A stretch of DNA of 64,000 bases, from the NCBI RefSeq assembly GCF_004010195.1, contig NC_057719.1, forward strand, positions 2,097,267-2,161,266, written 5' to 3'. The stretch is from Chiloscyllium plagiosum (taxonomy: Eukaryota). The position numbers and the translations under genes were made by a program. Shown one piece after another: positions 3,600 through 62,360 of the stretch; the stretch's first letter is position 1, and every line of letters starts with the position of its first letter. The notes beneath the pieces were generated by a model. That model saw only the letters and a list, made by a program, of their open reading frames with translations, was not told the DNA's origin and did not search any database.

Positions 3600-3722
3600 C
3601 AGTCCTGAGGAGGGACCGCTGCACCTGAAATGTTGACTCTGGCTTCTCTCCACAGGTGCTGAGATTTTCCACCAATTTGTCTTTGTTTCTGATTTCCAGC
3701 ATCCACAGTTTTTTCGATTTTA
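3600..3722 (+). mobile_element. Penelope-derived short element, family B (degenerate hammerhead)
   Basis: ctgaggag...gaaatgttgactc...ttctctccacag...tttccagcatccacag, homologous to the other family B copies. Confidence 0.6.
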
Positions 3723-4469
3723 AAAATGAGACTCCTGTTGTGGCCAATTCTATACTCTTTGGCTGGATAAAATATTTCAAACCAAACAAGAACGTTTGCA
3801 TGGGGCAAGAGCACATGCTGTACTTTTAGTCTTGGCTCAGACAGTGTACCCCACTGTACAATGTGCACTCCTGTGCTGATACATATTGTACATGGCCCAT
3901 AACAAAGACAAACTTACTGCTTTCTTAATTGGGTGAAATCTCTGTTGTTGTAACTGGCTTGCAGGTCAGCTTGGCTTTGTTTTTAACAGTGCTCGAGTCA
4001 GAATGCTTCAGCTATGTTCCTATGTTTGGAACTCAATGTGTAGATTAAACTTGACACTCCGTGCTTCAGTGAAATAGTAAAGGTCCCAAGGGGAGCGTTC
4101 TCCCCGAGGTCCTGGTATTCCTCCTTCAGCCAGCATTTTGGGGGGAAAGCATGCAGATTCGACTGGCGAGTTGTAAAATGATGGTTTGTCTACATGTTAG
4201 GTCAGGTGAATGACAAGGGTCTTTTCACTAGGCTGGGACTAGTTTAGTTTGGGAACGTGGTCAGCATGGACTGTTTGGACTGAAGGGTCTGTTTCCATGC
4301 TATATGACTTTACGTATTGGTGCTCTCTTTGGGAATGGCTTGGGGCTAATTAGTTGCCACTTGTTGTCTGTGTAGGTCACATACAATTCTTGTTGAAATG
4401 TAGTGGAGAAGCATTTGGGACATTTGTGATATGCAGTTCATGGTATCCGTTTACTTGTCCATTTTGTAC

Positions 4470-5090
4470 TGACACTGCAGGGGAGCAGGGTAGTGCTGTA
4501 CTGTTAGAGTTGCTGTTTCTCAGATGAGAGAGACTGTGATCCCAAGGACCTGGTTCTGGCTGTACTTCGAAGAACATAGGGTCTTTGCCTGATCTCCTGC
4601 AGTAGTTTATAGTTCAACCGGTGCCCAGTGGTTAGCACTGCTGCCTCACACCACCAGGGTCCCCAGGTTCAATTCCAGCCTCGGGCAACTGTCTGTGTGG
4701 AGTTTGCACGTTCTCCCCAAGTCTGTGTGGGTTTCCTCCAGGTGCTCCGGTTTCCTCCCACAGTCCAAAGATGCGTAGGTCAGGTGAATTGGCCATGCTC
4801 AACTGCCCGCAGTGTTAGGTGCATTAGTCAGAGGGGAATGGGTCTGGGTGGGATACTCTTCAGAGGGTTGGTGTGGACTTGTTGGGCCGAAGGGCCTGTT
4901 TCCATTCTGTCTGGAATCTAATCATCTAATCAAATCTAATAACCACCAGATCATCTACTCATTTTCTCATTGTTGCCTGTGGGATCCTGCTGTGTGCGTG
5001 TTGGCTACCACGGTTCTCACATTATAGCATTGTTTGTAAAACTTCCGGCATGTTCTGTGGCTGTGAAAGATGCCATACAAATGTAATTCC
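4470..5090 (+). mobile_element. Degenerate Deu-domain-like SINE split by a nested HE1 SINE
   Basis: The 3' part cattgttgcctgtgggatcctgctgtgtgcgtgttggct...gtgaaagatgccatacaaatgtaa resembles the copy at 58353-58615. Confidence 0.5.
4619..4940 (+). mobile_element. HE1-like V-SINE (tRNA-derived head, CR1-derived tail)
   Basis: A/B boxes cagtggttagcactg and ggttcaattcc; core gggtttcctccaggtgctccggtttcctcccacagtccaaaga; tail ggacttgttgggccgaagggcctgtttcc plus (taatc)n. Confidence 0.92.
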
Positions 5091-5735
5091 TTAAGAACCC
5101 ACCTTACTGTAGGGGAAATGGAAGCCAAATGGTTTGGAGTAGTAAATCACTTTATTGATATGTTTTAGGTTGAGATTTTTGTTTTTGCTGGGGCTGTGAT
5201 TATGTCGTTGAGCAGAACCACACCATTGCAACTACCTACAGCAGCAGTCCAGGTTCCTTTTTTTTTGTCAGGGTGAGCTTAAAACGTGTGCTGACATCCA
5301 TCAGAGCTGTTTAACAAAACAAAAGTGCCTTGGGCTTGTTTTTTTGATCTTTTTTTTTCAAAGCTTTGGCCTTTGCTCTGGCGGGTCACCTTTCCGATTG
5401 GTAAGTGCCCTGATACCAAGTCTAGACTTGTTCTTTCAAAACCTCGCTGTGCTGGTTGAGTGGCCAGCTGCTATGAGCAATTATTTCTGTGCCGGGGCGG
5501 GAGAAATGCACGAGAAAGGAATGAGGTGAAATGGAAAACGAAGCCGGTGAAAGACTATCTGAGGCGGGCAACAGATTGAACCCATCTGCATTTTGAATCT
5601 GCTACTTAGGAAATGGGTGAATGAGTGACTGCTTCTTCAAACTGGAGATGTGTTTACGTCAGCCCTGCATGTTTAACCTAGGAGCAGGAGGAGGCCATTC
5701 AGCCCAATGTTTCACTCCTATCTCAGAGCAATCTA

Positions 5736-5855
5736 CTGAAAACAAAAAATCCTGGAGATCACAGCCATGGAGAGAGAGAGAGCAAGCTAATGTTTTAAGT
5801 CTAAATAACTTCTTCAGCTCTGATCTCAAGCATTTTTTTGTTTTCAGTTCTGTTT
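5736..5855. mobile_element. Penelope-derived short element, family B, partial fold-back
   Basis: ctgaaaacaaaaaatcctggagatca ... tgatctcaagcattttttgttttcag inverted arms. Confidence 0.6.
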
Positions 5856-5884
5856 GTTTGAAAGAGCCCCCCCTATTAATCCCG

Positions 5885-7052: not shown

Positions 7053-7432
7053 TCCCTTTATAATATCGCGCACTTCAAAAGTCTTTTCTTGACTGTGAAT
7101 CACTTTGCGTTTTCTGAAGTGGTAAAGAGTACATTAGAAATGCAACTTTGTTTCGTTTTCATAGAATCCAGGCAACACTCTGTATCCTCCTTACTAACTC
7201 ACCCCGTGTACTATTTGTGTGTGCTGAGGTTTGGGAAAGAGTTCCTCTCTTTGAATTGCAGCCATTGGTGGATAAACCCTTACGTCTCCATGGTATTGGT
7301 GTCAGTGAAATGAGACGTGCAGATTTATGGAGCATAGATTGAAATGTATGCATGCCTTTTGAAACTTGGGCTGCCCACTAAAATCAAACATTTGGCTGTT
7401 CCACGTTATAAGATTACATTTCTCACTTAATG

Positions 7433-7735
7433 CAGAGGTGCCAGTCTTGGACTAGGGTGGACAAAATTAGAAGTCACAAAACACCAGGTTTATTTGAAAT
7501 CACAAGCTTCCAGAGCACTGATCCTAGATCATGATTTGGAGATGCCGGTGTTGGACTGGGGTGTACAGAGTTAAAAAATCACACAACACCAGGTTATAGT
7601 CCAATTGGAAGCACTAGCTTTCGGAGCGCTGCTGATGAAGGAGCATCGCTCTGAAAGCTAGGTGCTTCCAATTAAACCTGTCGGACTATAACCTGGTGTT
7701 GTGTGATTTTTAACTTTGTACATCCGAGATCAGGT
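7433..7735. mobile_element. Penelope-derived family C: palindromic copy (7532-7721) nested in an older family C copy
   Basis: Inverted arms aatcacacaacaccaggttatagtcc / ggactataacctggtgttgtgtgatt around ctgatgaaggagcatcgctctgaaagcta; TSD atcc[t/g]agatca at 7521-7531 and 7722-7732. Confidence 0.8.
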
Positions 7736-8224: not shown

Positions 8225-8571
8225 AAAACAAAATACTGTGGGAATATGAAATAAAAACTAAGTGCTGGAGAAACTCAGCAGGTTCGGCAGGAGAGAGAAA
8301 TAGTTAATGTTTTGAGTTTGATATAACTCTCCTTCAAAATTGAATGGATTGGAAAATAAAAGCAGAAATTGCTGAAAAAGCTCAGCAGGTCTGGCAGCAT
8401 CTGTGGAGAGAAATCAGACCTTCCTCAGTCCCCTCACTCAACCCAAAACGTTAACTCTGATTTCCCTCCACACGTGCTGCCAGACCTGCTGAGCTTTTCC
8501 AGCAATTTCTGTTTTTGTTTCTGATTGACAGCATCCGCAGTCCTTTCAGTTTACATTTGGGATTGGAAAAT
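8225..8571. mobile_element. Penelope-derived family B: palindromic copy (8358-8559) adjoining or nested in another family B copy
   Basis: gctcagcaggtctggcagca / tgctgccagacctgctgagc arms; TSD ggattggaaaat at 8346-8357 and 8560-8571. Confidence 0.8.
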
Positions 8572-8960
8572 GTTGGCTTTTGTGTTGTTGATGGAAAGGG
8601 ACGGAGGAGTGAGTGGAACAGATTATGGGATGTCCAGTCCAGACACAAAAAGGTGGTGATGGTCACAAAAAAAGGTGATGGTGATAACGAAGAGGTGTCA
8701 CATAGGAGCCCATCAAGATGTGAAACGGGGCAAATCCGCTGTTGAGAGCAAAGTCAGCAGATTCAGATAAGACTTGGATGTTGGGTGTTTGGGGAGGTAG
8801 GTGGCAGAGGAGGAGGGAGAGAGAGAGAGAAGGGGTATGTCAATAAAATGGAGGACAGAAGTGTCAGGCTGTGTGGTTGATGATACACAGAAATACAGAT
8901 GTAGGCTAATCAGCCCTTTGGTCTTATTTTGCCACTCGGTATGATCATGGTTAATCATAA

Positions 8961-9455
8961 CATGCGCACAAAACAACCCCGCCGCTCTGTGGCCGAACAC
9001 TTGTAACTCCCCCTCCCACTCTGCCAAGGACATGCAGGTCCTGGGCCTCCTCCACCACCAAACCCTAACTACCCAACGCCTGGAGGAAAAACACCTTATT
9101 TTCCACCTTGGGCCCCTCCAAGCACAAGGGACCAATGTTTCCTCATTTCCCCTCCCCCACCTTATCCCAGATCCAGCCTTCCGAATCAGCACCACCCTCC
9201 TGATCTGTCCATCTTCCTTCCTGCCTGTCTGCTCCACCCTCCTTTCCGACCTATCACCGTTACCCCCAGCTTCATCTACCTGTCACATTCCCTGTCGCTC
9301 TCCCTCCAGTCCCACCCCCCTCTCATTTATCTCTCAGCCCCCTTGGACCACCCTCTCATCCCTGATGAAGGGCTTATGCTCGAAACGTTGACTCTCCTGC
9401 TCATCGGACGCTGCCTGACCGGCTGTACTTTTCCAGCACCACACTCTTCGACTGT
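8961..9455 (+). mobile_element. Penelope-like element 3' end: GIY-YIG endonuclease C-terminus, pyrimidine-rich UTR and family A hammerhead terminus
   Basis: SHSAKDMQVLGLLHHQTLTTQRLEEKHLIFHLGPLQAQGTN resembles the PLE GIY-YIG tail (RLEE..LIF.LG.LQP.G.N); then ctgatgaagggcttatgctcgaaacgttg. Confidence 0.85.
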
Positions 9456-9765
9456 CCAACTCCATAGCCTGTTCCTGCTTTTCCCCTACATCTTTTGATC
9501 TCTTAGTCCCAAATCCTTGGTCCAACCCATTCCCGAAATTGTACAATGTTTTGGCCTCAACTGGTTTTCTGTGGCAGAGATTCCCACTTTCTGGGTGAAG
9601 ACATTTCTCCTCAACTCAGTCCGAAATGGTTAACCCTATGACTCCTGGTTGTGGACTTCTTGCTATTAGGTACATTACTTTCGGCATCTGTCATGTCTAG
9701 TCCTGATGCAATGTTATAGCTTCTAATGTAATTCTTCCCTCAAGCTTCTGAACTTCAGAGAATAT
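9455..9765 (-). mobile_element. Degenerate CR1 3' region; its tail lies at 8880-8960, split off by the Penelope insertion
   Basis: ttttggcctcaac...tctgggtgaagacatttctcctca matches other minus-strand CR1 3' ends. Confidence 0.65.
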
Positions 9766-9892
9766 ATAATGAATTCCATTTTGAGTCCTCGCGGCAGAGC
9801 GTTTTATCGGAAAAGGGCGATGTTGTAACTCCAGCGTGTGCTGCTTTGTCAGAATGAGCAGGTGCAAGATGGAAATGTTAGCTTGAGCTTAT

Positions 9893-10150
9893 TATAGTGG
9901 CAGCACCTGGGAGCCAGGGTTATTCCTATGGACAGAGTAGAGGTGTTCGGCAAAGCAGTCATCCAGTGTGCGCTTGGTCTCCCCATTATAAAGCAGCAAA
10001 TACAATAGATTGGGTTTGAAGTGTGTTTGAAGCTTTGGAAAACGAGGAGTGAGAAACGTTAAAGGGAGAGTGATTAAATGGGAAGGTGACGTGTGGGGGT
10101 TAGCAGTGACAGAGCAGTCAGCCAGGGTGTCATGCAGGGAATGGTTCCTC
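9893..10150 (-). mobile_element. Penelope-like GIY-YIG endonuclease fragment
   Basis: LLYNGETKRTLDDCFAEHLYSV matches the YIGET.R.L..RF.EH motif. Confidence 0.7.
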
Positions 10151-10377: not shown

Positions 10378-10510
10378 AGTTCCGAAGAAGGGTAATTGGA
10401 GCCCAAAATGTTCACTCCGCTTTCTCCCCACGCATGCTGCCAGATGTGCTGAGTTTTCCCAACAATCTGTTTGTTTCTGATTTCTAGCATCACCCCTTGT
10501 TCTTCGGTTT
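10378..10510 (+). mobile_element. Penelope-derived short element, family B
   Basis: ccgaagaagggt...cccaaaatgtt...tgctgccagatgtgctgagttttccc. Confidence 0.65.
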
Positions 10511-11145
10511 AAAGCTCCCAATTCAGGGAGAGATGCTTGACAAATTAAGTTGTCCTTTCTAAGGTCAAAATGTCAAACATGTCTACTTGATCAGTTTCAA
10601 CAAGGCTTTAGTGGTGTGGGAATGTGCACAGGGGATGGGAGTTGGTCCCCTGCCAAGGGGTGAGCAAGACATCTCAACTCCGACTCGAGGATGCTGTTGA
10701 GATCTCAAAGCCGTCAGCATCAGTCAGGTGGAGACTGTGCGCATCCACTTGATTGCAAGTGGTGCCACTGGCTGTGGGCTGGAATTCTGTACGATGGTGA
10801 CTTGTGAATTCGGAAGCTGCATTGCACCTCTGCAAACCAGGATTGTGTCGAGAGATCCGCCATCGGCCAGCACCAATGGCTGGTTTCTGCCTTTCACAGT
10901 CAGCTTGTTCGACCATCAGTGAAGTGCAACAGAAAATCTGAAAGACTGCTGACAGGAACTGCACTGCAGGCTTGTTGTTGTCTTCACTCTACCCGAACCA
11001 GGAGCTATCCACGGGGTCCAACTCACCAACACTGCGGAGATTACGGTCTTCTACTCTGATTATAGAATCATAAAATGATACTGTGTGGAAGGTGACCATT
11101 AGAGCCATTTCTTCCCCTCCTGTCCAGTCTATGATTTGGTACAGA

Positions 11146-11242
11146 GTCAAGAGTGTGACGCTGGAAAAGCACAGCAGGTCAGGCAGCATCCGAGGAGCAG
11201 CGAAATCTACGTTTCGGGCAAAAGCCCTTCATCAGGTATGCC
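11146..11242 (-). mobile_element. Penelope-derived short element, family A (hammerhead)
   Basis: Reverse complement ctgatgaagggcttttgcccgaaacgtag; TSD ctatgattyggyacaga at 11129-11145 and 11243-11259. Confidence 0.85.
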
Positions 11243-12410: not shown

Positions 12411-12553
12411 AACTAGCACCAGCCTCCTGAGTCTTTGCAAGGTTTCTGCTCAAACACTTTGTAGTCTTGTAGCCCTTCTTTGCTTTTTCCCTGGAGATGT
12501 GTATATTTAAAAAGTAAGTTATTGTTAATCTCCCTATGTCTTGCCCCAAATCT

Positions 12554-12642
12554 TTCCTGAAGAAGGGCGTGTGCCCGAAATGTCGAATCTTCTGTTCCCT
12601 AGATGCTGCCTGACCTGTGCTGTTCCAGCAATAAAGTTTCAG
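12554..12642 (+). mobile_element. Penelope-derived short element, family A (hammerhead)
   Basis: ttcctgaagaagggcgtgtgcccgaaatgtcgaa; perfect 14-bp TSD cttgccccaaatct at 12540-12553 and 12643-12656. Confidence 0.9.
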
Positions 12643-13314
12643 CTTGCCCCAAATCTGTCTCCCCCTATTCCTTGTACCATCAGCTAATAAGAACCATTTC
12701 CATCCTGTAAATCTCTATTAAGTATTGAGCATCTTCATTACACACTTTGTCTCTTTTTCATAAAATGAATGAGAAGTGAGAAATTCCTCTCTCGACAATT
12801 AGAATGTTAACCTGTTTGTGTTGGTGTGCTTTGGACACTGCTTCAGAGGGAACGGGATGAGGAGATGTTCATTGTCTTTGCAAACTATCATCGGGGGCGA
12901 GTTTGTTTTGGTGCCAACACTTCCTGGAGTACAGTTCACTAATTGCCAGAGACCTCTGAGGAACTGAGTTAATGATCTTGTGTCAGAACTGGTGGTACGG
13001 TGGTAATTTCACGGCCCTAGCAGTCCAGGGTAAAGATTCAGGTCGTACTGTAGCAGCTGTTGGAGTTTATATTCATATTAGGCATATTCACGGCTGAGAG
13101 AGACGTAATTGTAATTAGTAAGAGAGTCGAAGGTCATGGAGTAAAGGCAGGGATTTGGAGTTGAAGATTCTCAGATCACGTATAATCTCAGTGAACGGTG
13201 GAGCAGACTCAATGGGCTGAATGGCCTCCTCCTGCTTCTGTGTCTTACGGTGTCTGTAGGTGACACTTTCCAAGAAGTTTGAGCTTTGGCTGATAGGCTT
13301 TTTTTTTAGAAAAA

Positions 13315-13442
13315 GTAGACAGTGAGGCCTGCAGTTGCTGGAGATTAGAGTCGAGAGTGTGGTGCTGGAAAAGCACAGCAGGTCAGGCAACATCTGAGGA
13401 GCAGGAGAATCAGCGTTTCAGACATAAGCCCTTCATCAGGGA
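13315..13442 (-). mobile_element. Penelope-derived short element, family A
   Basis: gctggaaaagcacagcaggtcaggcaacatc...aagcccttcatcagg. Confidence 0.85.
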
Positions 13443-13749
13443 TTTTTAAAAAAAAGCTGTTTTCTCTCGTGAGAGCTAACAATGTGAGACTGCTTCTTAA
13501 TTGTTGAAAGGAGGTTGTCATCCTTCAGTCTGTATCACTGTAATCCTTGATACTATTCCACTGGGTTACAGGAGGGATTGCCTCGGCATAATATTGTCTG
13601 ATTTTATTGATATATAATAACATAATGTTATATCACATAAGGAGGTGCTTTGGCCCATCACATCTCTGCAGGCTTTATGAAACAGCTGAGGGATTGTTCG
13701 TTTATAAAAACCAAGTGTTCTACACAACTTACAAAACCCCCCCATGCTT

Positions 13750-14200: not shown

Positions 14201-14599
14201 AAAAATTCCTCATCACTTCCACTTTATTTGCAAGCCAGAGGGACAGAGCAGAGCTCCTTAGTTTTCAATATTAACATGTTTCAAAGTGGGTAATGGTAGT
14301 GTCCGACAGCGTGGCGGAGTTGACTGCCTCGTCAAAGCCCAATTATCTTTCCCTTGTTCGCTCACTGACTGGTGGTGGAGATGACGATGAGGGCTGTGTT
14401 GTTTTGGTCAGCAGTTTCTTTTTGATACCGGTTCCTGTAGCTGTGACATGCTGGTTGCAGAGGAGCAGCTGAGTGCCGGAATGTGGAATCCGACTACAGT
14501 GCTCTCGCTGCCACTGGGACTGATCAGCCAACATGGCACTGCTGGCTCCAACTGCTCACTGCTTTCAATCCAGGGAGACCTGAGTTACAATCAACTAGG

Positions 14600-14808
14600 C
14601 AAAAATTAGGACTGCAGATGCTGGAAACCAGAGTTTAGATTAGAGTAGTGCTGGAAAAGCACAGCAGGTCAGGCAGCATCAGAGGAGCAGGAGAATCGAC
14701 GTTTCGGGCATAAGCATCATTCCTGATGAAGAGCTTATGCCTGAAACGTCGATTCTCCTGCCCCTCGGATGCTGCCTGACCTGCTGCGCTTTTCCAGCTC
14801 TGCTCTAA
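14600..14808. mobile_element. Penelope-derived family A palindrome (minus copy plus plus copy)
   Basis: ...ggagaatcgacgtttcgggcataagcatca|ttcctgatgaagagcttatgcctgaaacgtcgattctcc..., arms about 80 bp. Confidence 0.9.
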
Positions 14809-15159
14809 ACAAGAGCTGGCCTGCCTAGCTAGAACTCATCACCTGAGCCCTTTGTAAAGCACACCCAGGTAAGGGTCTGCTGAACTGCCTGTCCAAGGGT
14901 GGACCGAGCATGTGTACACTATGATTAGTGGCTGTGTTTTGGTGTTCAACAAGTATCCTACTGTCACCTTTTTAAATACGAATTCTAGCACCTTTCCCAT
15001 GATAGATATTAGGTTAACTGGCTCTTGGTTTCCTGCTTTCTGACAGTCTCCTTGCTGAAATTAAGGTCTGACATTTGTTAATTTCTGGCTCAAACTCTTC
15101 CAGAATCTAAGAAATTTAGGAAGATTATATATTATTGACTGGAGATACTATAGTTCAAG

Positions 15160-17662
15160 TAATTTAGATGGGACAGTTTTTGTCCAGTGTGTGCTGGAGG
15201 GTTTCCTGACACAGTATGTAGACAGGCCAACAAGGAGTGAGGCCACATTGGATTTGGTACTGGGTAATGAACCCGGCCAGCTGTTAGATTTGGAGGTAGG
15301 TGAGCACGTTGGTTATGTTTAGTGATGGAAAGGGATAGGTATATAACACAGGGCAAGAGCTACAACAGGGGGAAAGGTAATTATGATGCGATTAGGCAAA
15401 ATATCGACTGCATTGGATGGGGAAGGAAACTCTAGGGGATGGGCACAATTGAGATGTGGAGCTTATTCAAGATTCTGCGTGTCCTTGATAAGTATGTACC
15501 TGTCAGACAGGGAGGAAGTTGTAGAGCGCAGGAGCCTTAGTTTACTAAGGAAGTTGTATCTCTTGTCAAGAGGAAGAAGAAGGCATATGTTCAGATGAGA
15601 TGTGAAGGCTCAGTTAGGGCGCTTGGGAGTTACACGTTAGCCAGGAAAGACCTAAAGACAGAGCTAAGAAGAGCCAAGAGGGGACATGAGAGGTCTTTAG
15701 CAGGTAGGATCAGGGACAACGTTATTGCTTTCTGTCGGTATATCAGGAATAAAAGAATGACTAGAGAAAGATTAAAGCCAATCAAGGATAGCAGTGGGAA
15801 CTTGTACATGGAGTCCGAGGAGATAGGGGAAGTGCTAAATGAATATTTTTCGTCCGTATGCGTACTGAAAAAAGACAATGTGGTCGAGGAGAACACTGGG
15901 ATATAGGCTACTCGACTAGATGGGATTGAGGTTTACAAGGAGGAGGTGTTAACCATTTTCACACTTTCCAGAATTGCTAAGTCCCCTGGGCCGGATGGGA
16001 TTTATCCCAGGATTCTCGGGGAAGCCAGGGAAGAGATTGCAGAACCTTTGGCTTTGATCTTTATGTCGTCATTGTCTACAGGAATAGTACCAGAAGACTG
16101 GAGAATGGCTAATGATGTTCCCTTGTTCAAGAAGGGGAAGAGAGACAGCCCTGGTAATTATAGACCAATGAGCCTTACTTTAGCTGTAAGTAAAATGTTG
16201 GAAAAGGTTATAAGGGATAGGATCTATAATCATCTGGAAAGGAATAAGTTGATTAGGGATAGTCAGCATGGTTTTGTGAAGGGTAGGTCGTGCCTCAACA
16301 AATCTTATTGAGTTCATTTGAGAAGGTGACCAAACAGGTAGATGAGGGTAAAGTAATGGGGTGTATATGGATTTCAGTAAGGTGTTTGATAAGGTTCCCC
16401 ATGGTAGGCTATTGCAGAAAATATGGAGGCATGGGATTAAGGGTGATTTAGTGGTTTGGATCAGAAATTGGCTAGCTGAAAGAAGACAGAGAGGGTAGTG
16501 GTTGATGAGAAATGTTCATCCTGGAGTTGAGTTACTAGGATTGATGTACCGCAAGGATCTGTTCTCCACTGCTGTTTGTTATTTTTATAAAATGACCTAG
16601 ATGAGGGTGTAGAAGGATGGGTTAGTAAATTTGCGATGACACTAACGTCGGTGGAGTTGTGGATAGTGCTGAAGGATGTTGTAGGTTACAGAGGGACATA
16701 GATAAATTGCAGAGCTGGGCTGAGAGGTGGCAAATGGAGTTTGATCCTGAAAAGTGTGAGGTGATTCACTTAAAAGGAGTAACAGGAATGCAGACTACTG
16801 GGCTAATGGTAAAATTCTTGGTAGTGTAGATGAGCAGAGAGATCTCGGTGACCACGTACATAGATCCCTGAAAGTTGCCACCCAGGATGATAGGGCTGTT
16901 AAGAAGGTATACGGTGTGTTAGCTTTTATTGGTAGAGGGATTGAGTTTCGGAGCCATGAGTTCATGTTGCAGCCGTACAAAACTCTGGTGCGGCCGCACT
17001 TGGAGTATTGCATACAGTTCTGGTCACCGCATTATGGGAAGGATGTGGAGACTTTGGAAAGGGTTCAGAGGAGATTTACTAGGGTGTTGCCTGGTTTGGA
17101 GGGAAGGTCTTATGAGGAAAGGCTGGGGGACTTGAGGTTGTTTTTGTTAGAGAGAAGATTCAGAAGTGACTTAATTGAGATGTACAAGATAATTAGAGAG
17201 TCAGATAGGGTGGACAGTGAGAGCCTTTTTCCTCAGATGGTGATGGCTAGCACAAGGGGACATTGCTTTAAATTGAGGGGTGATAGATATAGGACAGGTG
17301 TCAGAGAGAGTTTCTTTACTCAGAGAGTAGTAGGGGTGTGGAACAACCTGCCTGCAACAGTAGTAGACTTGCCAACTTTAAGGGCTTTTAATTGATCATT
17401 GGATAAACATATGAACAAAAATGGAATAGTATAGGTTAGATGGGCTGCATTTCCTGAAGAAGGGCTTATGCCTGAAACGTCGATTCTCCTGCTCCTTGGA
17501 TGCTGCCTGACCTGCTGCGCTTTTCCAGCAACACATTATCAGCTCTGATCTCCAGCATCTGCAGTCCTCACTTTCTCCTAGATGGGCTGCACACTGGTTC
17601 CACAGATCAGTGCCACATCGAGGGTTGAAGGGCCTGTACTGCGCTGTAATGTCCTATGTTTT
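15160..17662 (+). mobile_element. Long 5'-truncated CR1 LINE (~2.5 kb): endonuclease C-terminus, RT and 3' tail, frameshifted
   Basis: ORFs with KSPGPDGIYPRIL, PGNYRPMSLT, QHGFVKGRSC, YKTLVRPHLEYC, FFTQRVV..WNNLP. Confidence 0.95.
17450..17578 (+). mobile_element. Penelope-derived family A element nested in the CR1 3' tail
   Basis: ttcctgaagaagggcttatgcctgaaacgtcgat; 13-bp TSD tagatgggctgca at 17437-17449 and 17579-17591. Confidence 0.9.
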
Positions 17663-19033: not shown

Positions 19034-19249
19034 ACTAAAAAATGTGTTGCTGGAAAAGCACAGCCGGTCAGGCAGCATATCAGGAGCAGGAGAATCGATG
19101 TTTCGAGCAAAAGCTCTTCATCAGGAATAGCTTACGCTCGAAACGTCGACTGTGCTGCTCCTCGGATGCTGCCTGACCGGCTGTACTTTTCCAGCATCAC
19201 ACTTTGAGACTTTGATCTCCAGCATCTGCAGTTCTCACTTTCTCCTCGG
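19034..19249. mobile_element. Penelope-derived family A palindrome
   Basis: Inverted arms meet at ...cttcatcaggaatagcttacgctcgaaacgtcg...; TSD catctct[a/g]gag at 19023-19033 and 19250-19260. Confidence 0.88.
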
Positions 19250-21160: not shown

Positions 21161-21274
21161 GTGTAAACCAAAGGGCAGCGGACACTGGAGATCTGAAACG
21201 AAAACAAGAATCACTGGGGAAACTCAGCACCTCTGGCAATACTTGTTTGAGTCTGGTGACTCTTCCTCAGAAGA
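21161..21274 (-). mobile_element. Penelope-derived short element, family B
   Basis: ctgggaaactcagca...gactcttcctcaga; TSD tgataaattg at 21151-21160 and 21275-21284. Confidence 0.7.
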
Positions 21275-24687: not shown

Positions 24688-24782
24688 TCTACATTAGAGT
24701 GGTGCTGGAAAAGCACAGCAGGTCAGGCAGCATCCGAGGAGCAGGAACATTGACATTTCAGGCAAAAGCCCCTCATCAGGCC
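24688..24782 (-). mobile_element. Penelope-derived family A element
   Basis: TSD cattccaagg at 24678-24687 and 24783-24792. Confidence 0.85.
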
Positions 24783-36167: not shown

Positions 36168-36450
36168 CGGAAAAAGCACAACAGGTCCGGCAACATCCAA
36201 GGAGCAAGTGAGTCGGCATTTCAGGCGTAACCCTACATCAGGACTAGGGAAAGAGGCTGAGAAATAGGATCCTTCTCCGTCCGCAAAGATCTGTTTCTCA
36301 GCCCCCTTTCCCCTCCCCAATCCTGATGAAGGGTTATGCCCGAAACATCAGCTCTCTTGCTCCTCGGATGCTGCCTGACCTGCTGTGCTTTTCCAGCGAC
36401 ACCCTTTATCGTCTCTGACTCTCCAACATCTGCATTCTTCACTATCTCCT
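36168..36450. mobile_element. Penelope-derived family A palindrome with arms extending into the UTR
   Basis: Arms meet around 36270-36287; TSD agtattcca[g/a]tcg at 36157-36169 and 36451-36463. Confidence 0.85.
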
Positions 36451-40711: not shown

Positions 40712-40988
40712 CGAGGAGAAAGTGAGGGCTGCAGATGCTGGAGATCAGAGCTGAAAATGTATTGCTGGAAAAGCGCAGCAGGTCAGGCAGCATCCAAGGA
40801 ACAGGAGAATCGACGTTTCAGGCATAAGCCCTTCTTCAGGAATGAGGAAAGTGTGTCCAGCAGGCTAAGATAAAAGGTAGGGAGGAGGGACTTGGGGGAG
40901 GGGCGTTGGAAATGCGATAGGTGGAAGACAGGCCGCCTACTTGCGGAATGTTTCAGAGAACACCTCTGGGACACCCGGACCAACCAGG
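40712..40988. mobile_element. Penelope 3' end (minus, family A) joined to an inverted GIY-YIG fragment (plus, 40926-40988)
   Basis: Reverse complement attcctgaagaagggcttatgcctgaaacgtcgattc; the + strand then reads TGRLLAECFREHLWDTRTNQ. Confidence 0.8.
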
Positions 40989-41378: not shown

Positions 41379-41624
41379 CTGTGTAGTTTACCAGGGTACA
41401 GTTAAAGATTAATCACATTGGTGAAGGACTAGAACCACATACAGGCCCAGATGAACTGTGGTAGGTTTCCTTCCCTTAAAGTGTGTGCTCTCTATATGTA
41501 ACCCCGCCTAAATCCAATTTTTAAATTATAAGCATCTTTATTGAAAAGCAGCGGATGTGCTGTTGTGGGGAGAGAGGGTCAGATCGGTTGGTGCCTCCAT
41601 TCCTTCTCTAACCCCAGCATGATG

Positions 41625-41726
41625 AAACAAGGACAAAAAGTGCTGGAGAAACTCAGCAGGCCTGCAGCATCTGTGAAGAGAGATACGGAGTTAGCGTTTC
41701 GGGTCCAGTGAGCCTTCCTCAGAACC
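41625..41726 (-). mobile_element. Penelope-derived family B element
   Basis: Reverse complement gttctgaggaaggctcactggacccgaaacgctaac. Confidence 0.8.
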
Positions 41727-43091: not shown

Positions 43092-43540
43092 AATCCTGAT
43101 GAAGGGCTTTTGCCCGAAACATTGATTTTCCTGCTTCTCAGAAATTGCTTGACCTGCTCTGCTTTCCCAGCACCACTCTAATCTTGACTCTAATTAGATT
43201 AAATTCCCTACATTGTGGAAACAGGCCCTTCGGCCCAACAAGTTCACACCGACCCTCTGAAGAGCAATCCACCCAGACCTATTCTCCTACATTTACCCCT
43301 GACTAATCCACCTAACACTACGGGCAACTTAGCACGGCCAATTCACCTGACCTGCACATCTTTGGACTGTGGGTGGAAACCGGAGCACCCGGAGGAAACC
43401 CACACAGACACGGGGAGAATGTGCAAACTCCACACAGCCAGTCACCTGAGGCGGGAATCGAACCTGGGTCTCTGGCACTGTGAGGGATCAGTGCTAACCA
43501 CTGAGCCACTCTCCAGCATCTGCAGTCCTGACTTTTGCCT
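43092..43540 (+). mobile_element. Family A Penelope-derived element interrupted by an HE1 SINE
   Basis: aatcctgatgaagggcttttgcccgaaacattgatt... resumes after the SINE as ctccagcatctgcagtcct at 43511. Confidence 0.82.
43191..43510 (-). mobile_element. HE1-like V-SINE
   Basis: Reverse complement of HE1. Confidence 0.93.
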
Positions 43541-44292: not shown

Positions 44293-44719
44293 AGCAGCAG
44301 CAGCTCTGACAGTGCGGCACTCCCTCACTGCTACTTAGGAATTTGGTCTTTAAAAATATTGAGATAATGGGTGGGAATTAATTGAGTTCACATCCTGCTG
44401 ACTTGAGTACAAGTTTTTTTTAGTCAAATTGTTCAGACATATTATGACCCATACCTCCAGAACATATGGGACTTGAACTTGGACCTTCTAACTCAGTGGT
44501 AAGGACACTGCCACTGCACCACAAGGAGACTTTGGCTGTGGTACAAAACAAAATGTCCTAGTCAACTTGCTTAGAGATGTTATTAAGTACCTCTGGAGCA
44601 GTTGGGACTTGAACCTTCAGCTCCTGTCTCAGAGGCAGGGGCACTCCCACTGCACTATTCGGGCCTCTCTCTGACTTGGGTGCATGCTACTTGAAGACAT
44701 GGCTAATTCCTGGGGAAGC

Positions 44720-44881
44720 GCAGCAGGTCAGGCAGCATCAAAGGAGCAGGAGAATCGACGTTTCAGGCATAAGCCCTTCTTCAGGATTCTTCTGCTTCTT
44801 TGATGCTGCCTGACCTGCTGCGCTTTTCCAGCAACACATTTTTCAGCTCTGATCTCCAGCATCTGCAGTCCTCACTTTCTC
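44720..44881. mobile_element. Penelope-derived family A palindrome
   Basis: TSD ctaattcct[g/a]gggaagc at 44703-44719 and 44882-44898. Confidence 0.88.
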
Positions 44882-44994
44882 CTAATTCCTAGGGAAGCCA
44901 AATAATTTACGTCACTTTTGCTTTATAAATTTGCTAAAATAAAACAGGCTTGTGCTGAATGAGGAAACTTGTTGGACAACGTTGAGCTTTTATC

Positions 44995-45160
44995 CCTGGA
45001 GAAACTCAGTGGGTCTGGCAGCATCTGTGGAGAGAAACTGAGTAATGATCCAGATCCAGTGACTGTTCTTCAGAACTGATAGTAGCCCTTAAGAAGGGTC
45101 GCTGAACTCAACGTTAACTCTTGCTTTCTCCTTGTAGATGCTGCCAGACCGGCTGAGTTT
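44995..45160. mobile_element. Penelope-derived family B palindrome
   Basis: aaactcagtgggtctggcagcatct / agatgctgccagaccggctgagttt arms. Confidence 0.8.
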
Positions 45161-47329: not shown

Positions 47330-48350
47330 AGACAGAACTAAAGCCTCTGTATCAAAGTGTCTGTAGCATTCACACCAAAGTGCTTACCTGAAGTAGAAAT
47401 AAACATGCATGACTTGATCGGAACAAATTACTGCAGATGCAGGAATCTGCACTGAAAACAACAAATGCTAGAGATCAGAGTGAGTCGCTCAGCATCCATG
47501 GAGAGAGAATCTATGTGACTCTTCAGAGCTCTGAGGAAGAGTCATCTGGACCCGAAATGTTAGCTTGCTCCCTCTCCATGGATGCTGTCTGACCTCTGTT
47601 GTTTTTAGTGTATGACTTGATGGTCTTTAGATACTTTGCTGCAAGTAGTACAACAAAGCTGGAATGTAAATCATCAAGAATACGACATTTCAGAATGACA
47701 AGAAGCTGAGAAAAGGTGGTGAAATAGCTCTGTTAATTAAGGAAAGCAGTACTTGGTATTGTATTGTGCTTAAACTGTAATACTGTACTTAATGAGAGAT
47801 TATCTTCTTTGTCTAGTTATATAATCAGTTTGAAAGAAGAAATGTCCAAGTTAAGACACTTGTGGGAGTTGTTTATAGATCTAACGGTAATTATGTTGTA
47901 GGACAGAGGACACAGGAGGACATAGTCGGACCTTGTAAATAAAATACAGCTATTATCATAGGTGACTTTAATTTGCGTAGATTGGAAAAATCTGATCAGC
48001 AAAGGGAACTTGATAGATGTGCTTAATGTTTTAAGTATAATTTCCTTAAAGCAACACATTGAGAGCCAACCAGCGAGCAGGCTATCCTCAACCTGGTAAT
48101 ATGCAGAATCAAGATTAATTCCTGATCTGTAGTTCAGGAGCCTCTTGGGGGTAGTGATTATAATATTGAATTTTGCATTCAGTTTGAGGGAGAAAGGAGT
48201 ATGTATAAGACTGGTATTTTAAACTTTAGGGCAATTACAAGGGCACCTGTATAAAGTTGGCTAAAGTGAACTGACCTTAGTAAAGGATGGATTCGTACAG
48301 CTCTAGTGATAGACATTTGAGATAATTTAAGTTAAAGGATACATTTACAT
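47330..48350 (+). mobile_element. Old degenerate CR1 endonuclease region
   Basis: IIGDFNL remnant (atcataggtgactttaat); gagccaaccagcgagcaggctatcctc. Confidence 0.6.
47419..47608. mobile_element. Penelope-derived family B palindrome with a near-intact hammerhead core
   Basis: agct-CTGAGGA-a-gagtc atctg gaccc-GAAA-t-GTT-agct at 47527-47565; TSD tg[c/t]atgacttgat at 47406-47418 and 47609-47621. Confidence 0.82.
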
Positions 48351-49274: not shown

Positions 49275-49470
49275 TTTGTCCAAAGTCACATGACACCAGG
49301 TTATAGTCCAACAGGTTTGTTTGAAATCACAAGCTTTCGGAGTGTTCCTGACCGAGGAGCAGCATTCCAAAAGCTTGTGATTTCAAATAAACCTGTTGGA
49401 CTGTAACCTGGTGACGTGTGACTTTTGAGCTTGTCCATCACAGTCCAACACCAGCACCTCCACATCATGA
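49275..49470. mobile_element. Penelope-derived family C palindrome
   Basis: caccaggttatagtccaacaggttt...aagctttcggag / ccaaaagcttgtgatttc...ggactgtaacctggtg. Confidence 0.85.
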
Positions 49471-49559: not shown

Positions 49560-50680
49560 ACACCCAAACCCCACAAGTTGAGCTATTTGACATGGGGAGT
49601 GAGGAGGTATTGGTGGTTTCGGTGGGCTTAAAATTGGACAACCAAGTGGGTGAGTTGCATCCCAGGCTGCTGTGGGAAACAAGGGAGCAAATTACAGGGA
49701 CTCTGATCCAATTTTTAATTCCTGTCTGGCCACAAGAGGCGATATCAAAGGACTGGATAACCGCTAACCTGGTTCCCCTTTTCAAGAAGGAAGCTTGAGT
49801 TAAACCAGGGAATTACAGACAAATGAGTCTCACATCAGTGGTAGGGAAACTATTCGAGAAAACTCTGAAGCAGAGAATTAATCTCTGCTTAATTAGGGAT
49901 GATTAGTACGGCTTTGTCTGAGGGAGGCGAAAATGGGTACTGCAGATGCTGGAGATCAGAGTCAAGGTTAGAGTGGTGCTGGAAAAGCACAGCAGGTCAG
50001 GCAGCATCCGAGGAGCAGGAAAATCAACGTTTCGGGCAAAAGCCCTTCATCAGGTTTCCAGCAACACTCTAATCTTGACTTTGTCTGAGGGAGGCCATGC
50101 CTAATGAATTTGCTTGAATTTTTTGAGTGGGGAGGTGTGCTGGTGGTGATGATCCGGTGTGTAATTGAAGAAAGTGCGTTGATGTTTATATGGATTTCAG
50201 CAAAGCCTTTGTCAAGGTCCAACATAGAGATTGATAGAGAAGGTAAAAGCTGCTGGAATCCAGTGTAACCTTGCATACATAAACAATATAGAAGGTGTGG
50301 TGGGGATGGTAATACACATTGCGGATGACATTGAGAGTGGCCAGGTGGTTGATGGCGAGGCGGAAGGTGTTAGGTTACATGGGGGTATAGATGGATTGGT
50401 CAGATGGAATTTAATCCTGATAAATGTGAAGTGACAAGGAAGTACCCAATGAATAGCAGGATGCTAGGAAACTCTGAGGGATTTTAGGGAGCTTGTCCAC
50501 CAATCCCTGAAGGTGGCAGGACAGGCTAACCCTTTTTTCAAAAGAAAAATGAGCATCTGAAATGTCATAACATTTGTGGGTATGGCCCAAGTGCTGGAAA
50601 GTAGGACTAGTGTAGATTCAGCAATTTTGTTGGTGTCGACTCGATGGGCTGAAGGGCCTTTTCTATACTCTTCTGATTCT
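49560..50680 (+). mobile_element. Degenerate, internally deleted CR1
   Basis: DWITANLVPLFKK and ccagggaattacagac remnants; tail tcgatgggctgaagggcc. Confidence 0.8.
49929..50078 (-). mobile_element. Family A Penelope-derived element with a short inverted terminal copy, nested in CR1
   Basis: Perfect 17-bp TSD ctttgtctgagggaggc at 49912-49928 and 50079-50095. Confidence 0.92.
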
Positions 50681-51034
50681 AAATTCAGTTATAATGATGA
50701 CGTGTGTATGCTCCCTAAGCTCGTTACTGTACTGGGGCCAGTCCGTTAACCAAGAGGTTATAAAGTGTACTCACTACTGCAGCACAGGGTGTTCAGATAT
50801 AATTCCTCTCGAACTGTGTATAGGATATTCCGTCTCCACAATGCCAGTGCCAAAACCTGGCCAGAGACTAAAGCATGAGCTTTTCATTCAACACACCTGG
50901 GAGCAACTCTTGACATTCAGGAAGAAAACAGCAGAAACAGGTGAACATCGGAGAAGGGAGGAAACCTCCCAACCAAATTTGCTGGAACCACATGAGGCAT
51001 TGCTGCCCCAACACTCTGGACCTCTCTCTCTCCA

Positions 51035-51125
51035 AAACAGAAATATCATAGAGAAACTGAGTAGGGCTGGTAGCATCTGTGAAGAGGAAGCAGAGTTAAT
51101 GTTTCTGCTCCAGTGACCCTTCAGC
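51035..51125 (-). mobile_element. Degenerate family B Penelope-derived element
   Basis: gagaaactgagtagggctggtagcatctgtgaagag...gttaatgtttc...gacccttcagcag. Confidence 0.6.
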
Positions 51126-51384
51126 AGAGCCTCTCTGGAGCTCACACTTGCTGTATTACACAATACAACATGGCACAATGCTCCTGTGTGGGGTGGGACA
51201 TCTCTTTGATGTATCTTGTTCCGACACTCAGTGGAATACACCAATGTCCACCATGACTGGAACCATCTTCTCAACAGCTCTCCACTGGCTTCCTGACCCA
51301 GCAAGTAACACCCATCCCACACATCCTTGCTAATTGGGACTGGGAGGTGTACAGAATTCTGCATAGATGCTGAGAAGTTGTTTC

Positions 51385-55042: not shown

Positions 55043-55076
55043 TTCCTGAAGAAGGGCCTGTGCCCGAAACGTCGAA
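55043..55076 (+). ncRNA. Minimal type I hammerhead ribozyme motif (best-preserved family A copy; element spans ~55040-55124)
   Basis: ttc-CTGAAGA-a-gggc(ctgt)gccc-GAAA-c-GTC-gaa: stem I ttc/gaa, intact core boxes, 4-bp stem II, palindromic ACGU stem III, GUC cleavage triplet. Confidence 0.72.
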
Positions 55077-56044
55077 TCTCCTGTTCCCTGGATGCTGCCT
55101 GACCTGCTGTGCTGTTCCAGCAATCTCTTGTTCCTCACATAAGTGTAGAATGCCTTAGAGTTTTCCTTAATCCTACCCGCTAAAGCTTTTTCCTGCCCCC
55201 TTCTCACTCTCCTCAGTCCATTCATCAGTTCCTTCCTGGCCACCTTGTAACCCACTAGACCCCTGTCTGATCCTTGCCTCCTCAACCTTAAGTAAGCTTC
55301 CTTCTTCCCCTTGATTAGATTTTCCACATCCCTTGTCACTCAAGGTTCCTTCATCTTGCCTCAGTGGGACAAACCTGTTCCAGCACAGTCAGCAAGTGCT
55401 TCCTCAACAACTTCCACATTTCTGTTGTGCATTTCCCTGAGAATATCTGTTCCCAATTTAGACGCCCCAGTTCCTGCCGAATAGCATTATACTTCCTCCT
55501 CCCCCAATTGAGTACAGTCTGCTCCTATCCCTCTCCATGAGTGTAGTAAAAGTCAGGGAGTTGTGATCACTATCACCAAAATGCTCTCCCACTGAGAGAT
55601 CTGACTGCTGCCATGGTTCATTGCCAAGCACCAAATCCAATATGGCCTCCCCTGTAGCTGGCCTATCTACATATTGAGTCAGGGACCCTTCCTGGACACA
55701 CCTGATAAAAACTGCTAAATCCAAACTATATGAACTAAGTAGGTTCCAATCAATATTAGGGAAGTTAAAGTCACCCATAACAACAACCCTGTTACTTCTG
55801 CACCTTTCCAAAATCTGCTCCTCTGTGCCTCTGTTGCTATTGCAGGGCCTGTATAAAACTCCCAATAAAGTGACTGCTCCTTTCCTGTTTCTGACTTCCA
55901 CCCATACTGACTCTGTCGACAAACCCTCCTCGATACACTCCCTTTCTGCAGCTGTGATACTATCCCTGGTTAGCAATGCCACTCCCCCACCTCTCTTACC
56001 TCCTTCCCAATTCCTTTTCAAACATCTAAACCCTGGAAATCTGG

Positions 56045-56697: not shown

Positions 56698-56726
56698 AAA
56701 TGCTGAACCAGTTCTGATGAGAGGTC

Positions 56727-56953
56727 AGAGTCGAAAAGTATGGTGCTGGAATAGCACAGCTGGTCAGGCAGCATCCAAGGAGCAGGAGAGTCAATGTTTC
56801 AAGCATAAGCCCTTCATCAGGAATGCTCTTCATTAATTCCTGATGAAGATACTCAACTCTCCTGCTCGTTGGATGCTGCCTGACTGCCTGTGCTTTTCCA
56901 GCACCACACCTTTTGACTGATTTTCAGCATCTGCAGTCCTCACCTTCTCCTCC
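56727..56953. mobile_element. Penelope-derived family A palindrome
   Basis: ...cttcatcaggaatgctcttcattaattcctgatgaag...; TSD ctgatgag[a/c]ggtca at 56714-56726 and 56954-56966. Confidence 0.88.
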
Positions 56954-59626: not shown

Positions 59627-59960
59627 ATTCATGGCATATGAGTGTCTCTGGCTAGGCCAGCATTTATTGCCCACCCTTGATTGCCGAGAGGGCAGTTGAG
59701 AGTCAACCACATTGCTGTGGGTCTGGAGTCACATGTGGGACAGACCAGGTAAGGATGGCAGATTCCCCCCCCCCCCCCCCCCCCGAAGGACCTTAGTGAC
59801 TCAGACGGGTTTTTCCTGACAATCAACTGATTGCTATCACTAGAGTCTTAATTCAGATTTTATTTCAATTAAAGTTAAATTCCACCGTCTGCCATGGTGG
59901 GATTTGAACGCGCACATTATCTGGGTTTCTGAATTAACAGTCCAGTGATAATACCATCAC
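59627..59960 (-). mobile_element. tRNA-derived SINE, second family, near full length
   Basis: Reverse-complement head tggtattatcactgg...gttcaaatcccaccatggc (A/B boxes); tail ggcaataaatgctggcctagcc. Confidence 0.8.
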
Positions 59961-60379
59961 ATATGAGAGAAATTCCAATAGCCCCAACACCCTAATCTTT
60001 CTTACCCTGCAGCCCTGCAACCAATTTTTTTTTCCAATACTTGTTTCATTTCATTTTGAAAATGCTCCCAAAAATAGCAAATGTTTGTATTTAAATTGCG
60101 CATTTAATGCACTGAAGTCCCAAGGTGCTTCACAGGAATGTTATCACACAGTGTGAGAGTGTCACGAGTTGATATTTTCACTTTCAAGCAACACATTCTA
60201 AATCATCATCACTCGACATACTGTGGGCCCCATTATGCAGTGACCAACTCAGTTGCAAGGTAAAAGAACAGAACTGTTTAAAACCATCTTGTGATGTTTC
60301 AGATAAAAAGAAAACCTGCATTTCTGTAGTTCCCTCTAAATTGTCCTGTTGTTAAAATGTTCAGTGAAGCACTTGGAAT

Positions 60380-62360
60380 AGTAATGGAGCAGCAGGAAAT
60401 GGCAGAAGAGTTGAGCAGAACTTTTCACAGTAGAAGACACCAGTAACATTCCACAATGACCGAATAATCAAGGAGCAAAGGGAGAGAACAAAATAAATTC
60501 TCTTTCTTTACTCAGAGAGTAGTAGGGGTGGGGAACGCTCTGCCTGCAACAGTCGTAGAACTCACAAACTTTAAGGGCATTTAAATGGTCGTTGGATAGA
60601 CATAGGGACGTGAATGGAATAGTGTAGGTTAGATGGGCTCGAGATTGGTTTCACAGGTCGGTGCATCACCGAGGAATGAAGGGTCTGGACTGCGCTGTAA
60701 TGTTCTATGTTCTAACTATAAAACCTATCATTAAAGAAAATGTGCCAGGGATTGTAAAGGTTGATCTATTCCCTGGACGCGATGGGCTGCATCTTTAGAT
60801 GTTAAAAGAAGCAGCCACAGAGATAGTGGATGTAGTCATAGCAATCTTCCAGGATTTATGTGGGTTCTGAAAAACCGCTGATGTAGTACCTTTATTTTAA
60901 AAAGGAGGGACACAAAAAACAGGTAACTCTCGGCCAGTTATCAGGAAATATGTTATAAAGACTGTAAACATGAGCATTTAGAAATGCATAATATGATCAC
61001 ACAGAGACAATGTGGCTTCATGGAGGGGAAATCATGTCTGATAAATTTATCAGAATTCTTTGAGGAGTTAAGAAGTGGGATAGATCAAGATGAAATGGTA
61101 AATGTAATATATTGGATTTTCAGAAGACATTCAATAAGGTATCACACATTAGACTACTTAATAAAATACAAAGAGCCCATGGTGTTGGAGGTAGTATATT
61201 GGCATGGAGAGAGGATTGGCTAACTAATAGAAGACAGAGAGTTGGGATAAGGGAGGCATCTTCAGGAAGGCGACCTTAATTAGTGGAGTGCCTCAGTTAA
61301 TTGCCATATATATTAATGACTTAGATCAGGAAAGTGAATGTTATTGGAGCCACGTTTGCAATGGGAAGGCAAGTGGTCAGGATGACAAAAAAAATATCTG
61401 CACACTGGGTAAGTGAGTGGGCAAAAACTTGGCAATTGGAATCTACTGTGGACAAATGTGAGGTTCTGCACTTTGGCAGGAAGAATAGAGGAGCTGAATA
61501 TTATTTCAGTGCAGAAAACTACAGAACAGAGCAATTTGAAAGTCCAGATGCATAAATCTGATAAAGCTAGTGTATAAGTTCTGCCAGTAATAGGGAAGGT
61601 AAATAGAACATTGGCCTTCATTTCAAAGGGAATGGAGTATAAAATTAGGGAGGTCTTGCTAAAATTATACAAATCACTAGTCAGACCACAGACTGGAATA
61701 CTGTGAACAATTTTTGGGCCCTTCATCTAAGGAAAGACAGACCGACATTGAGGCAGTCCAGAGAAAGGTCTCTAGGCTGATCCTAGATATGGAGTGACTG
61801 ACTTAGGAGAAGAGGTTGAATTCTCAGAAGCCTGTACTCATTGTAATTTAGAAGAATTAGAGGTGACCTCTTTGAAACAGACAGTGATTCTTAGGGGACT
61901 TGACAGGGGGGATGTTAAGTTGTTTTCCCTTGTGAGAATGTCTGGGACCAGAGGGCGTCGCTTCAGAATAAGGGATTGCTTTTTTAAGACAGGTGAGGAG
62001 GAATTTCTTCCCAGGGTGGTCAGTTTGTTGAATTCTTCACCACAGAGCACTGTTGACACTGGCTCGTTCAGTATATCCAAGGCTGAGAGAGATGGATTTT
62101 TAAATCAGGAAGGGAATCCAGGGTTGTGGGGGAAAAGGCAAGAAAGTGAAGCTGAGGATTATTAAATCAGCCATTGAATACTGGAGCAGGCTTGATGGGC
62201 TGAATGTCATTGCGAGTGTGTTGCTGGAAAAGCACAGCAGGTCAGGTAGCATCCGAGGAGCAGGAGAATCGACGTTTTAGGCATAAGCCCTTCATCAGGA
62301 ATGAGGCTTGTCTTGATGGGCTGAATGGCCGACTTCTACTGCTGTGTATTATCGTGTTCT
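60380..62360 (+). mobile_element. Degenerate CR1 (~2 kb) with a nested CR1 tail (~60500-60715)
   Basis: QCGFMEGKSCLINLSEFFE, DKCEVLHFGRKN, LYKSLVRP, RVVSLLNSSP remnants. Confidence 0.88.
62207..62311 (-). mobile_element. Family A Penelope-derived element in the CR1 3' tail
   Basis: 16-bp TSD cttgatgggctgaatg at 62191-62206 and 62312-62327. Confidence 0.9.

Follow-up and report, generated by a model that had tools for sequence, protein, structure and literature searches.

Penelope-like elements (PLEs) are known to carry minimal hammerhead ribozymes in their repeats and to disperse them in large numbers (PMC4209133). In Poseidon of Anolis (PAc) the protein, a predicted dimer, is reported to cut and extend both target strands, to start internally at two sites that delimit a tail, and to insert unprocessed RNA, and the hammerhead is reported to need the protein in order to cleave (PMC11167929). 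Insertions of endonuclease-bearing (EN+) PLEs such as Pen2a_Av are described as carrying a head-to-head inverted, 5'-truncated copy, a short target duplication and a one-sided tail of 30-40 bp (PMC3846280; Fig. 2 of PMC8557442). Here we describe a 64,000-nucleotide stretch from the shark Chiloscyllium plagiosum (contig NC_057719.1, positions 2,097,267 to 2,161,266; “the window”), rich in remnants of CR1-type long interspersed nuclear elements (LINEs), for which an earlier note made from the sequence alone had reported short hammerhead-bearing insertions. The short repeats prove to be hammerhead-plus-tail ends from four PLE families that carry an endonuclease, and were likely left as dead by-products of priming within the 5' leader of uncleaved RNA, with synthesis running off at the predicted RNA start, which would be the first base of the ribozyme.

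Positions are numbered from C3 of the hammerhead core (+1), with the family A cut site between +28 and +29. An arm is one hammerhead plus its tail, and an insertion is a solo arm or a head-to-head pair of arms (a palindrome). Arms were detected with profiles that took natural copies as seeds and were refined in one iteration, using reversed sequence as a control, both in the window and in a sample of 98 arbitrary 10-kb stretches of the 3.56-Gb genome (962,384 non-N bases; 1.03 Mb with the window).

The hammerheads resemble published PLE hammerheads in the CUGANGA box, the extra base before stem II, the G10.1-C11.1 pair and the palindromic minimal stem III, in forming many consensus families per genome, mostly as single motifs from truncated PLEs, and in that some pairs lie on opposite strands 100-700 bp apart; they differ in a stem II of 4-5 bp. 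Descriptor matches number about 45 per Mb (46 in 1.03 Mb), which extrapolates to the order of 10^5 in the genome; published counts, made with a different descriptor, are about 4,000 motifs in coelacanth and about 9,000 in Xenopus. As reported for PAc, a hammerhead at the boundary of the pseudo-long terminal repeat (pLTR) is followed by two end points delimiting the tail, but the PAc open reading frame (ORF) is described as starting at stem II, with the start sites inside it, whereas the family A ATG lies at +163, past the long tail (PMC11167929). A tail on one end only, and TATA- and initiator (Inr)-like motifs in the pLTR, are shared with Pen2a_Av as described, although many insertions here measure just 150-280 bp in full and a count is given for the asymmetry (76 of 80); target duplications are of about 13 bp, against the 8-10 bp given for Adineta. 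Metazoan non-LTR retrozymes are likewise described as non-coding, PLE-related and equipped with a type I hammerhead, but as head-to-tail tandem repeats of 150-450-bp units expressed as circular RNA (PMC7229834; bioRxiv 10.64898/2026.07.22.740005), unlike the dispersed solos and head-to-head pairs with a minimal core seen here. No paper counting the tail asymmetry or describing these families in sharks was found in a search that left aside subscription papers, supplements and Repbase/Dfam.

Head-to-head palindromes and the two tail lengths

Head-to-head palindromes, overlooked in the earlier note, make up ten of the 30 window insertions and are the informative feature. They were studied in a set of 80 from the window, the random stretches and neighbouring stretches. 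The 3' ends of arms are bimodal in all families, falling at about +75 to +100 or at +113 to +127, and when a long tail is defined as one reaching at least +108, exactly one long and one short tail are found in 76 of the 80 palindromes, with two long tails in 2 and none in 2. Independent arms would give 40 (P 1.4e-18), and a cut-off of 105 gives 75/80. At a score of at least 8, target duplications of 8-23 bp (median 13) flank 55 of 79 palindromes, compared with 3/79 when flanks are swapped; at a score of at least 11 they flank 29/193 solos, compared with 1/193 in the control. The junctions between arms are distinct in 42/44 family A, 20/20 family C and 11/11 family B2 palindromes (73/75 together), and thus each palindrome formed on its own.

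The 5' ends pile up at -10 to +1, around the first base of the ribozyme (-4). The further-reaching arm ends at -10..-1 in 31/44 A palindromes, and only in 15/40 does this arm carry the long tail. Random A solos (n=81) form a continuum of 5' truncation: 21 begin at -10..+1 and 15 at +2..+60, while 22 extend 41-300 nt upstream and 11 more than 300 nt. Arms ending at +28..+31 occur in 7/44 A palindromes; we rejected the idea that cleavage defines these ends, as stem I complementarity accounts for them equally well. Upstream of the hammerhead, about 30 nt before these ends, an AT-rich box at -28 to -40 reads CATAAA or TATAAA in 5/6 B1, 3/4 B2 and 11/15 C copies. We take this box to be TATA-like, and TCATTC or TCAGTT at -4 to be Inr-like. 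TATA and Inr are reported in a rotifer pLTR (PMC3846280), and a TATA-less internal promoter is reported for Drosophila Penelope (PMC2377424).

Partner arms are 0.90 alike, compared with 0.81 for random members of a family. Three palindromes (L062, L064 and L131) have arms assigned to different families (A/B2, B2/B1 and B1/B2), which may be mis-assigned short decayed arms or true mixed-template insertions.

Parent elements

The earlier note had linked family A to a Penelope GIY-YIG tail and had suggested a Penelope origin with extreme 5' truncation, and both points hold: the copy at 8960-9464 is joined to a PLE endonuclease frame, of which it holds the C-terminal part, and each family runs continuously into long coding copies. 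A genome search with the 8945-9136 frame returned 63,160 first-look candidates. Long family A copies, some of them 97-99% alike, encode a DKG motif, a reverse transcriptase (RT), a linker of the form CxxxxCxxC and a GIY-YIG domain, and pLTR, hammerhead and tail come next; a frame of 754 aa in locus L201 matches Pfam RVT_1 (E 9e-8) and GIY-YIG (E 2.5e-4), and its protein has no relative in PDB at E<=1. Endonuclease remnants lie directly 5' of the hammerhead in B1 (L099) and B2 (L127, L065), with tblastn E values of 9e-14 and 2e-16. Family C has a separate set of coding copies, with pairwise likeness of 88-95%, and the C hammerhead is 3' of the endonuclease in 8/11 loci. Pfam gave no match for the C copy L191, and nothing in the endonuclease remnants of the window.

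The C-x4-C-x2-C linker between RT and endonuclease is present in A, B1, B2 and C. Together with the single ORF, the DKG motif and the C-terminal GIY-YIG with CCHH residues, it recalls Neptune/Nematis-type PLEs, whose clades are described as defined by a CX2-5CxxC linker at this place (PMC8557442). Judged by this motif rather than by RT phylogeny, the parents appear to be Neptune/Nematis-like. The repeat is, as read from sequence, that of an EN+ PLE, since a single ORF (RT plus C-terminal GIY-YIG) is joined to it.

The family A unit has the order hammerhead, tail, ATG (+163), RT, CxxxxCxxC linker, GIY-YIG, pLTR, hammerhead, tail, and the hammerhead with its tail thus stands at both ends of the element, as a 5' leader ahead of the ATG and 3' of the endonuclease. 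The long tail continues into the ORF start in L023 and L181, and the ATG at +163 is seen in L239. Out of 24 loci with an ORF start, 8 have an upstream hammerhead and 16 are truncated, inverted or gapped before it; four of the 8 start at -4, -4, -2 and +1, and the other four carry 29-166 nt of pLTR. Locus L212 was rejected as a full-length element because its 5' palindrome is a separate insertion.

Three further sequences touch on the parents. In L239 (1445-1459) a pyrimidine tract plus AG closes the long tail of family A just before the ATG, resembling a splice acceptor, and no matching joint occurs in the reads. In L181 (3826-4180), 10 kb left of the window, an internally deleted family A unit with a target duplication runs from -4 through the tail and about 150 nt beyond into the ORF start, and then jumps to a second hammerhead with a short tail; its two same-strand hammerheads, about 260 nt apart, are the nearest to a dimer-competent form that was seen. 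In the window, a decayed frame at 9892-10323 (- strand), opposite in strand to the B2 arm at 10378, includes a stretch resembling GIY-YIG (LLYNGETKRTL..FAEHL); it has no Pfam match, shares no more than 21 bp with a long B2 copy, and is probably an old PLE remnant or inverted arm.

Four hammerhead families and their density

The earlier count of about 30 short insertions is borne out by the profile scans, which find 30 insertions with 40 arms between 3600 and 62304 (21 A, 4 B1, 10 B2 and 5 C), and no match for any of the four profiles in reversed sequence. The 98 stretches hold 301 arms, grouped into 235 insertions. Arm density per 10 kb is 6.25 in the window, about double the mean of the stretches (3.07), and 10/98 stretches have at least 7; the high density is genome-wide and not specific to the window. 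Arms make up 3.0% of the sampled bases, which by rough extrapolation suggests some 10^6 arms in the whole genome.

A loose CUGANGA..GAAA scan returns 25 window sites, including all those noted earlier, and the motifs are present as quoted, with cores at 55046, 47531, 41722 (-), 7632 and 9362. A strict hammerhead descriptor has 2 window matches where 0.017 per 64 kb would be expected (60 Markov-3 simulations), and all 46 matches of a relaxed descriptor in the 1.03 Mb lie within the four families (reversed sequence 0).

The note had proposed at least three co-varying families. Covariation between families is real, but the number is four, as its family B splits into B1 and B2. Stem I is AUUC/GA(U/A)U in A, AGCU/AGCU in B1, AGUU/AACU in B2 and CAC/GUG in C, and stem II is GGGC/GCCC, GAGUC/GACUC, GGGUC/GACCC and GGAGC/GCUCC, respectively, by family majority. 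The gagtc..gaccc pairing once given for family B contains a mismatch peculiar to the copy at 47531. The ttc/gaa stem I of family A fits a minor subfamily (AUUC/GAAU), while the dominant one has a U.U mismatch (AUUC/GAUU), and at 7632 the bases 5' of the core belong to the inverted arm. The stem III palindrome does change as a pair, ACGU or AGCU, as had been noted. Stems I, II and III thus change on both sides between families, with G10.1-C11.1 and the core constant. Pairs were checked by position and not counted on a MAFFT alignment of 17 hammerheads, which shifted family C out of register. By core letters, stems I-III and compensatory changes, all four families are minimal type I hammerheads, for which self-cleavage is predicted. 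Standard annotation misses them, as anticipated: Rfam gives 13 matches at E<=5, none of them a hammerhead, and on the window palindromes only weak microRNA matches.

Decay of the ribozyme and RNA reads

The 12 core letters are kept in 17/40 window arms and the stems as well in 5/40; over all arms these counts are 105/356 and 42/356. G12, which sits in a CpG, is mutated in 21/95 A (22%), 10/30 B2 (33%), 5/25 C (20%) and 4/9 B1 arms, like neighbouring CpG sites. The hammerhead would have been under selection in the source elements, as covariation between families suggests, and it decays in the copies.

RNA was surveyed in run X19, a single-cell polyA short-read run tied to its source by species label only and a weak test for RNA starts or cleavage ends. 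In this run 2,774 of 12,955,460 reads match an A copy, in both directions, and depth is 0-11 over the ORF versus 500-875 over hammerhead and tail. There is no place where many molecules begin or end, including no pile-up at the cleavage site. The reads echo the genomic end points: -4 is the end point of five of eight opposite-strand joints (31 of 41 reads), and the commonest loose ends are -4, +81/+86 and +126/+127. This fits passive read-through of many genomic copies. Among the joints listed, none leads from the tail end back to the cleavage site, in a library unsuited to circles.

Proposed twin priming and its alternatives

We propose that the PLE protein would make a staggered cut of about 13 nt in the target, and that both target strands would act as primers, each for a separate cDNA, with one cDNA begun at the near start site and the other at the far one. 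Priming within the 5' leader would run off at the RNA start near -4, giving products of 90-130 nt; two cDNAs joined head to head would form a palindrome whose tails are unequal, one long and the other short, and loss or extreme shortness of one cDNA would leave a solo. Priming in the 3' copy of the tail would yield the long, variably truncated copies. As ends lie at -4 rather than +29, the template would be uncleaved. We lean, by a little, towards reading the genome as some 10^5 natural records of such twin priming by a PLE dimer, one cDNA per strand of the cut and always one per start site, from uncleaved RNA starting at the first base of the hammerhead, which would mark the transcript 5' end and not be used to cut the template.

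Several observations weigh against the proposal. A strong target duplication is present in only 29/193 solos, and further-reaching arms go beyond -10 in 4/20 family C palindromes. Random flanks extend a match by at least 10 nt in 13/60 trials, blurring the -20..-6 bins, and family A has only TTTAT (10/15 copies) in place of a canonical TATA box. As to whether both arms come from one RNA molecule or two, the best match of an arm is its partner in 8/35 A, 1/17 C and 0/11 B2 palindromes. X19 reads show no RNA start at -4, within the limits of that run. Lastly, the non-CpG core mismatch in family A is 3.8%, compared with 8.5% in the tail (rank test p 0.026; p 0.08-0.2 in the other families), where the A-rich core letters (base composition) and subfamily differences in the tail suggest themselves as the cause.

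A palindrome could also form from the same PLE by-products by fold-back self-priming (proposed in PMC3846280) or by polymerase stalling at a folded or protein-bound hammerhead, with endonuclease resolution (proposed in PMC8557442) leaving a one-sided tail; -4 would then be a stall point and not an RNA start. Several junctions do overlap by 2-5 bases inside hammerhead stems, the 7/44 A palindromes with an arm ending at +28..+31 end where stem I complements -4..-1, and the greater likeness of partner arms points the same way. Yet junctions are highly variable, many with filler bases, near-complete elements likewise start at -4..+1, the TATA-like box stands at core-promoter distance in three families, and two internal start sites on both strands are reported in vitro (PMC11167929). 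We regard this route as unlikely.

Quite unlikely, too, is that the short forms are non-autonomous elements resembling short interspersed nuclear elements (SINEs) or retrozymes, amplified from their own short masters with PLE protein in trans. Their very high copy number and sharp ends would suit this, truncated copies keeping at least 40 nt of pLTR retain the TATA-like box and could be transcribed, and a pLTR-flanked sequence is reported to have moved in trans (PMC3846280). Against it, none of 26 tandem arrays with a period of at least 40 overlaps an arm (window and 98 stretches; none among the 11 window arrays), 73/75 junctions are distinct, solos starting at -4 lack the upstream box, short copies carry the same subfamily variants as long coding copies, and reads come from both strands without defined ends. 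With the neutral decay at G12 in addition, the retrozyme-like label of the earlier note is dropped.

It is very improbable that selection maintains the copies as functional genomic ribozymes that cut host transcripts. The lower non-CpG core mismatch and the occurrence of the sequences in RNA reads would favour it, but G12 is lost at a CpG-like rate, few arms (42/356) keep core and stems, reads do not pile up at the cleavage site (X19, a weak test), and palindromes fold into a single hairpin that buries the core. Relative to shuffles, 8 hammerhead monomers fold at z +1.05 to -1.52, none of them beyond about z -1.5, which is the expectation for minimal hammerheads. Nine candidate host frames have no Pfam match, and no host gene was identified. 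A miniature inverted-repeat transposable element, or another self-copying palindromic element, is rejected, since copies with distinct junctions (73/75) do not share one fixed internal structure.

Insertions and other repeats in the window

Table 1. Hammerhead-bearing insertions of the window, in window coordinates.
Insertion	Position	Strand	Features
B2-type solo	3600..3714	+	core 3605, long tail, 16-bp target duplication
B1 solo	5730..5816	-	decayed core
C solo remnant	7430..7531	-	long tail, decayed core
C palindrome	7529..7728	.	long arm 7529-7633 (-), short arm 7632-7728 (+, core letters intact), 11-bp target duplication
B2 remnant without core	8239..8317	-	
B2 palindrome	8354..8546	.	short arm -, long arm +, 12-bp target duplication
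A copy	8960..9464	+	C-terminal piece of GIY-YIG endonuclease frame, pLTR, hammerhead (core 9362), short tail
B2 solo	10378..10491	+	decayed core
A solo	11142..11240	-	short tail, 17-bp imperfect target duplication
A solo, GAAU subfamily	12551..12630	+	core and stems intact, 14-bp target duplication, starts at -2
A solo	13314..13443	-	long tail
A palindrome	14597..14810	.	long arm -, short arm +; one long hairpin, -150 kcal/mol, z -18
A solo	17451..17579	+	long tail, core and stems intact, 13-bp target duplication, starts at -3
A palindrome	19038..19246	.	short arm -, long arm +, 12-bp target duplication
B2 remnant	21170..21272	-	internal deletion
A solo	24696..24780	-	short tail
B1 solo	25138..25290	-	upstream pLTR piece with CATAAA at -35
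A palindrome	36172..36450	.	pLTR pieces between arms, 13-bp target duplication
A copy	40714..40928	-	about 85 nt pLTR, core and stems intact, long tail; within CR1-type LINE remnant
B2 solo	41624..41725	-	core 41722
A solo	43094..43194	+	short tail
A palindrome	44710..44883	.	joined via stem I (-2 to +29), 15-bp target duplication; - arm core and stems intact
B2 palindrome	44996..45160	.	both tails short, decayed
B1 palindrome	47424..47604	.	long arm -, short arm + (core 47531), 13-bp target duplication
C palindrome	49282..49470	.	short arm -, long arm +, decayed core
A copy	49925..50083	-	long tail, about 29-bp inverted tail piece at 5' end, 17-bp target duplication
B2 solo	51034..51128	-	decayed core
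A solo, GAAU subfamily	55043..55122	+	core and stems intact; within CR1-type LINE remnant
A palindrome	56721..56951	.	short arm -, long arm +, 14-bp target duplication
A solo	62215..62316	-	short tail, 16-bp target duplication, starts at -12

The window also holds repeats of other kinds. A palindrome of about 540 bp at 33955-34495, with arms of about 200 bp (86% alike), is unrelated to the hammerhead families and has no second copy in the window and the 98 stretches. A tandem array at 31728-32632 has a unit of about 70 bp in at least 11 copies, with no hammerhead. At 23600-24100 two inverted repeat copies 124 bp apart form a long hairpin, with similar units at 20750, 40500 and 43300; we presume these units to be SINE-like.

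Significance

The families are new but of a known kind, present in unusual numbers, their PLE architecture is already published, and the elements themselves are ordinary decaying PLE debris. At about 3% of the sampled sequence they are relevant for repeat annotation, and their palindromes are a source of false microRNA-like hairpins. The copies are useful above all as a large natural record of PLE integration, a process that is still poorly understood, as is the role of the PLE hammerhead. The rule of one long and one short tail (76/80), the duplication of about 13 bp and the wall at -4 allow what was found in vitro for PAc to be recast as precise predictions concerning the stagger of the cut, one start site per strand, the RNA start and an uncleaved template.

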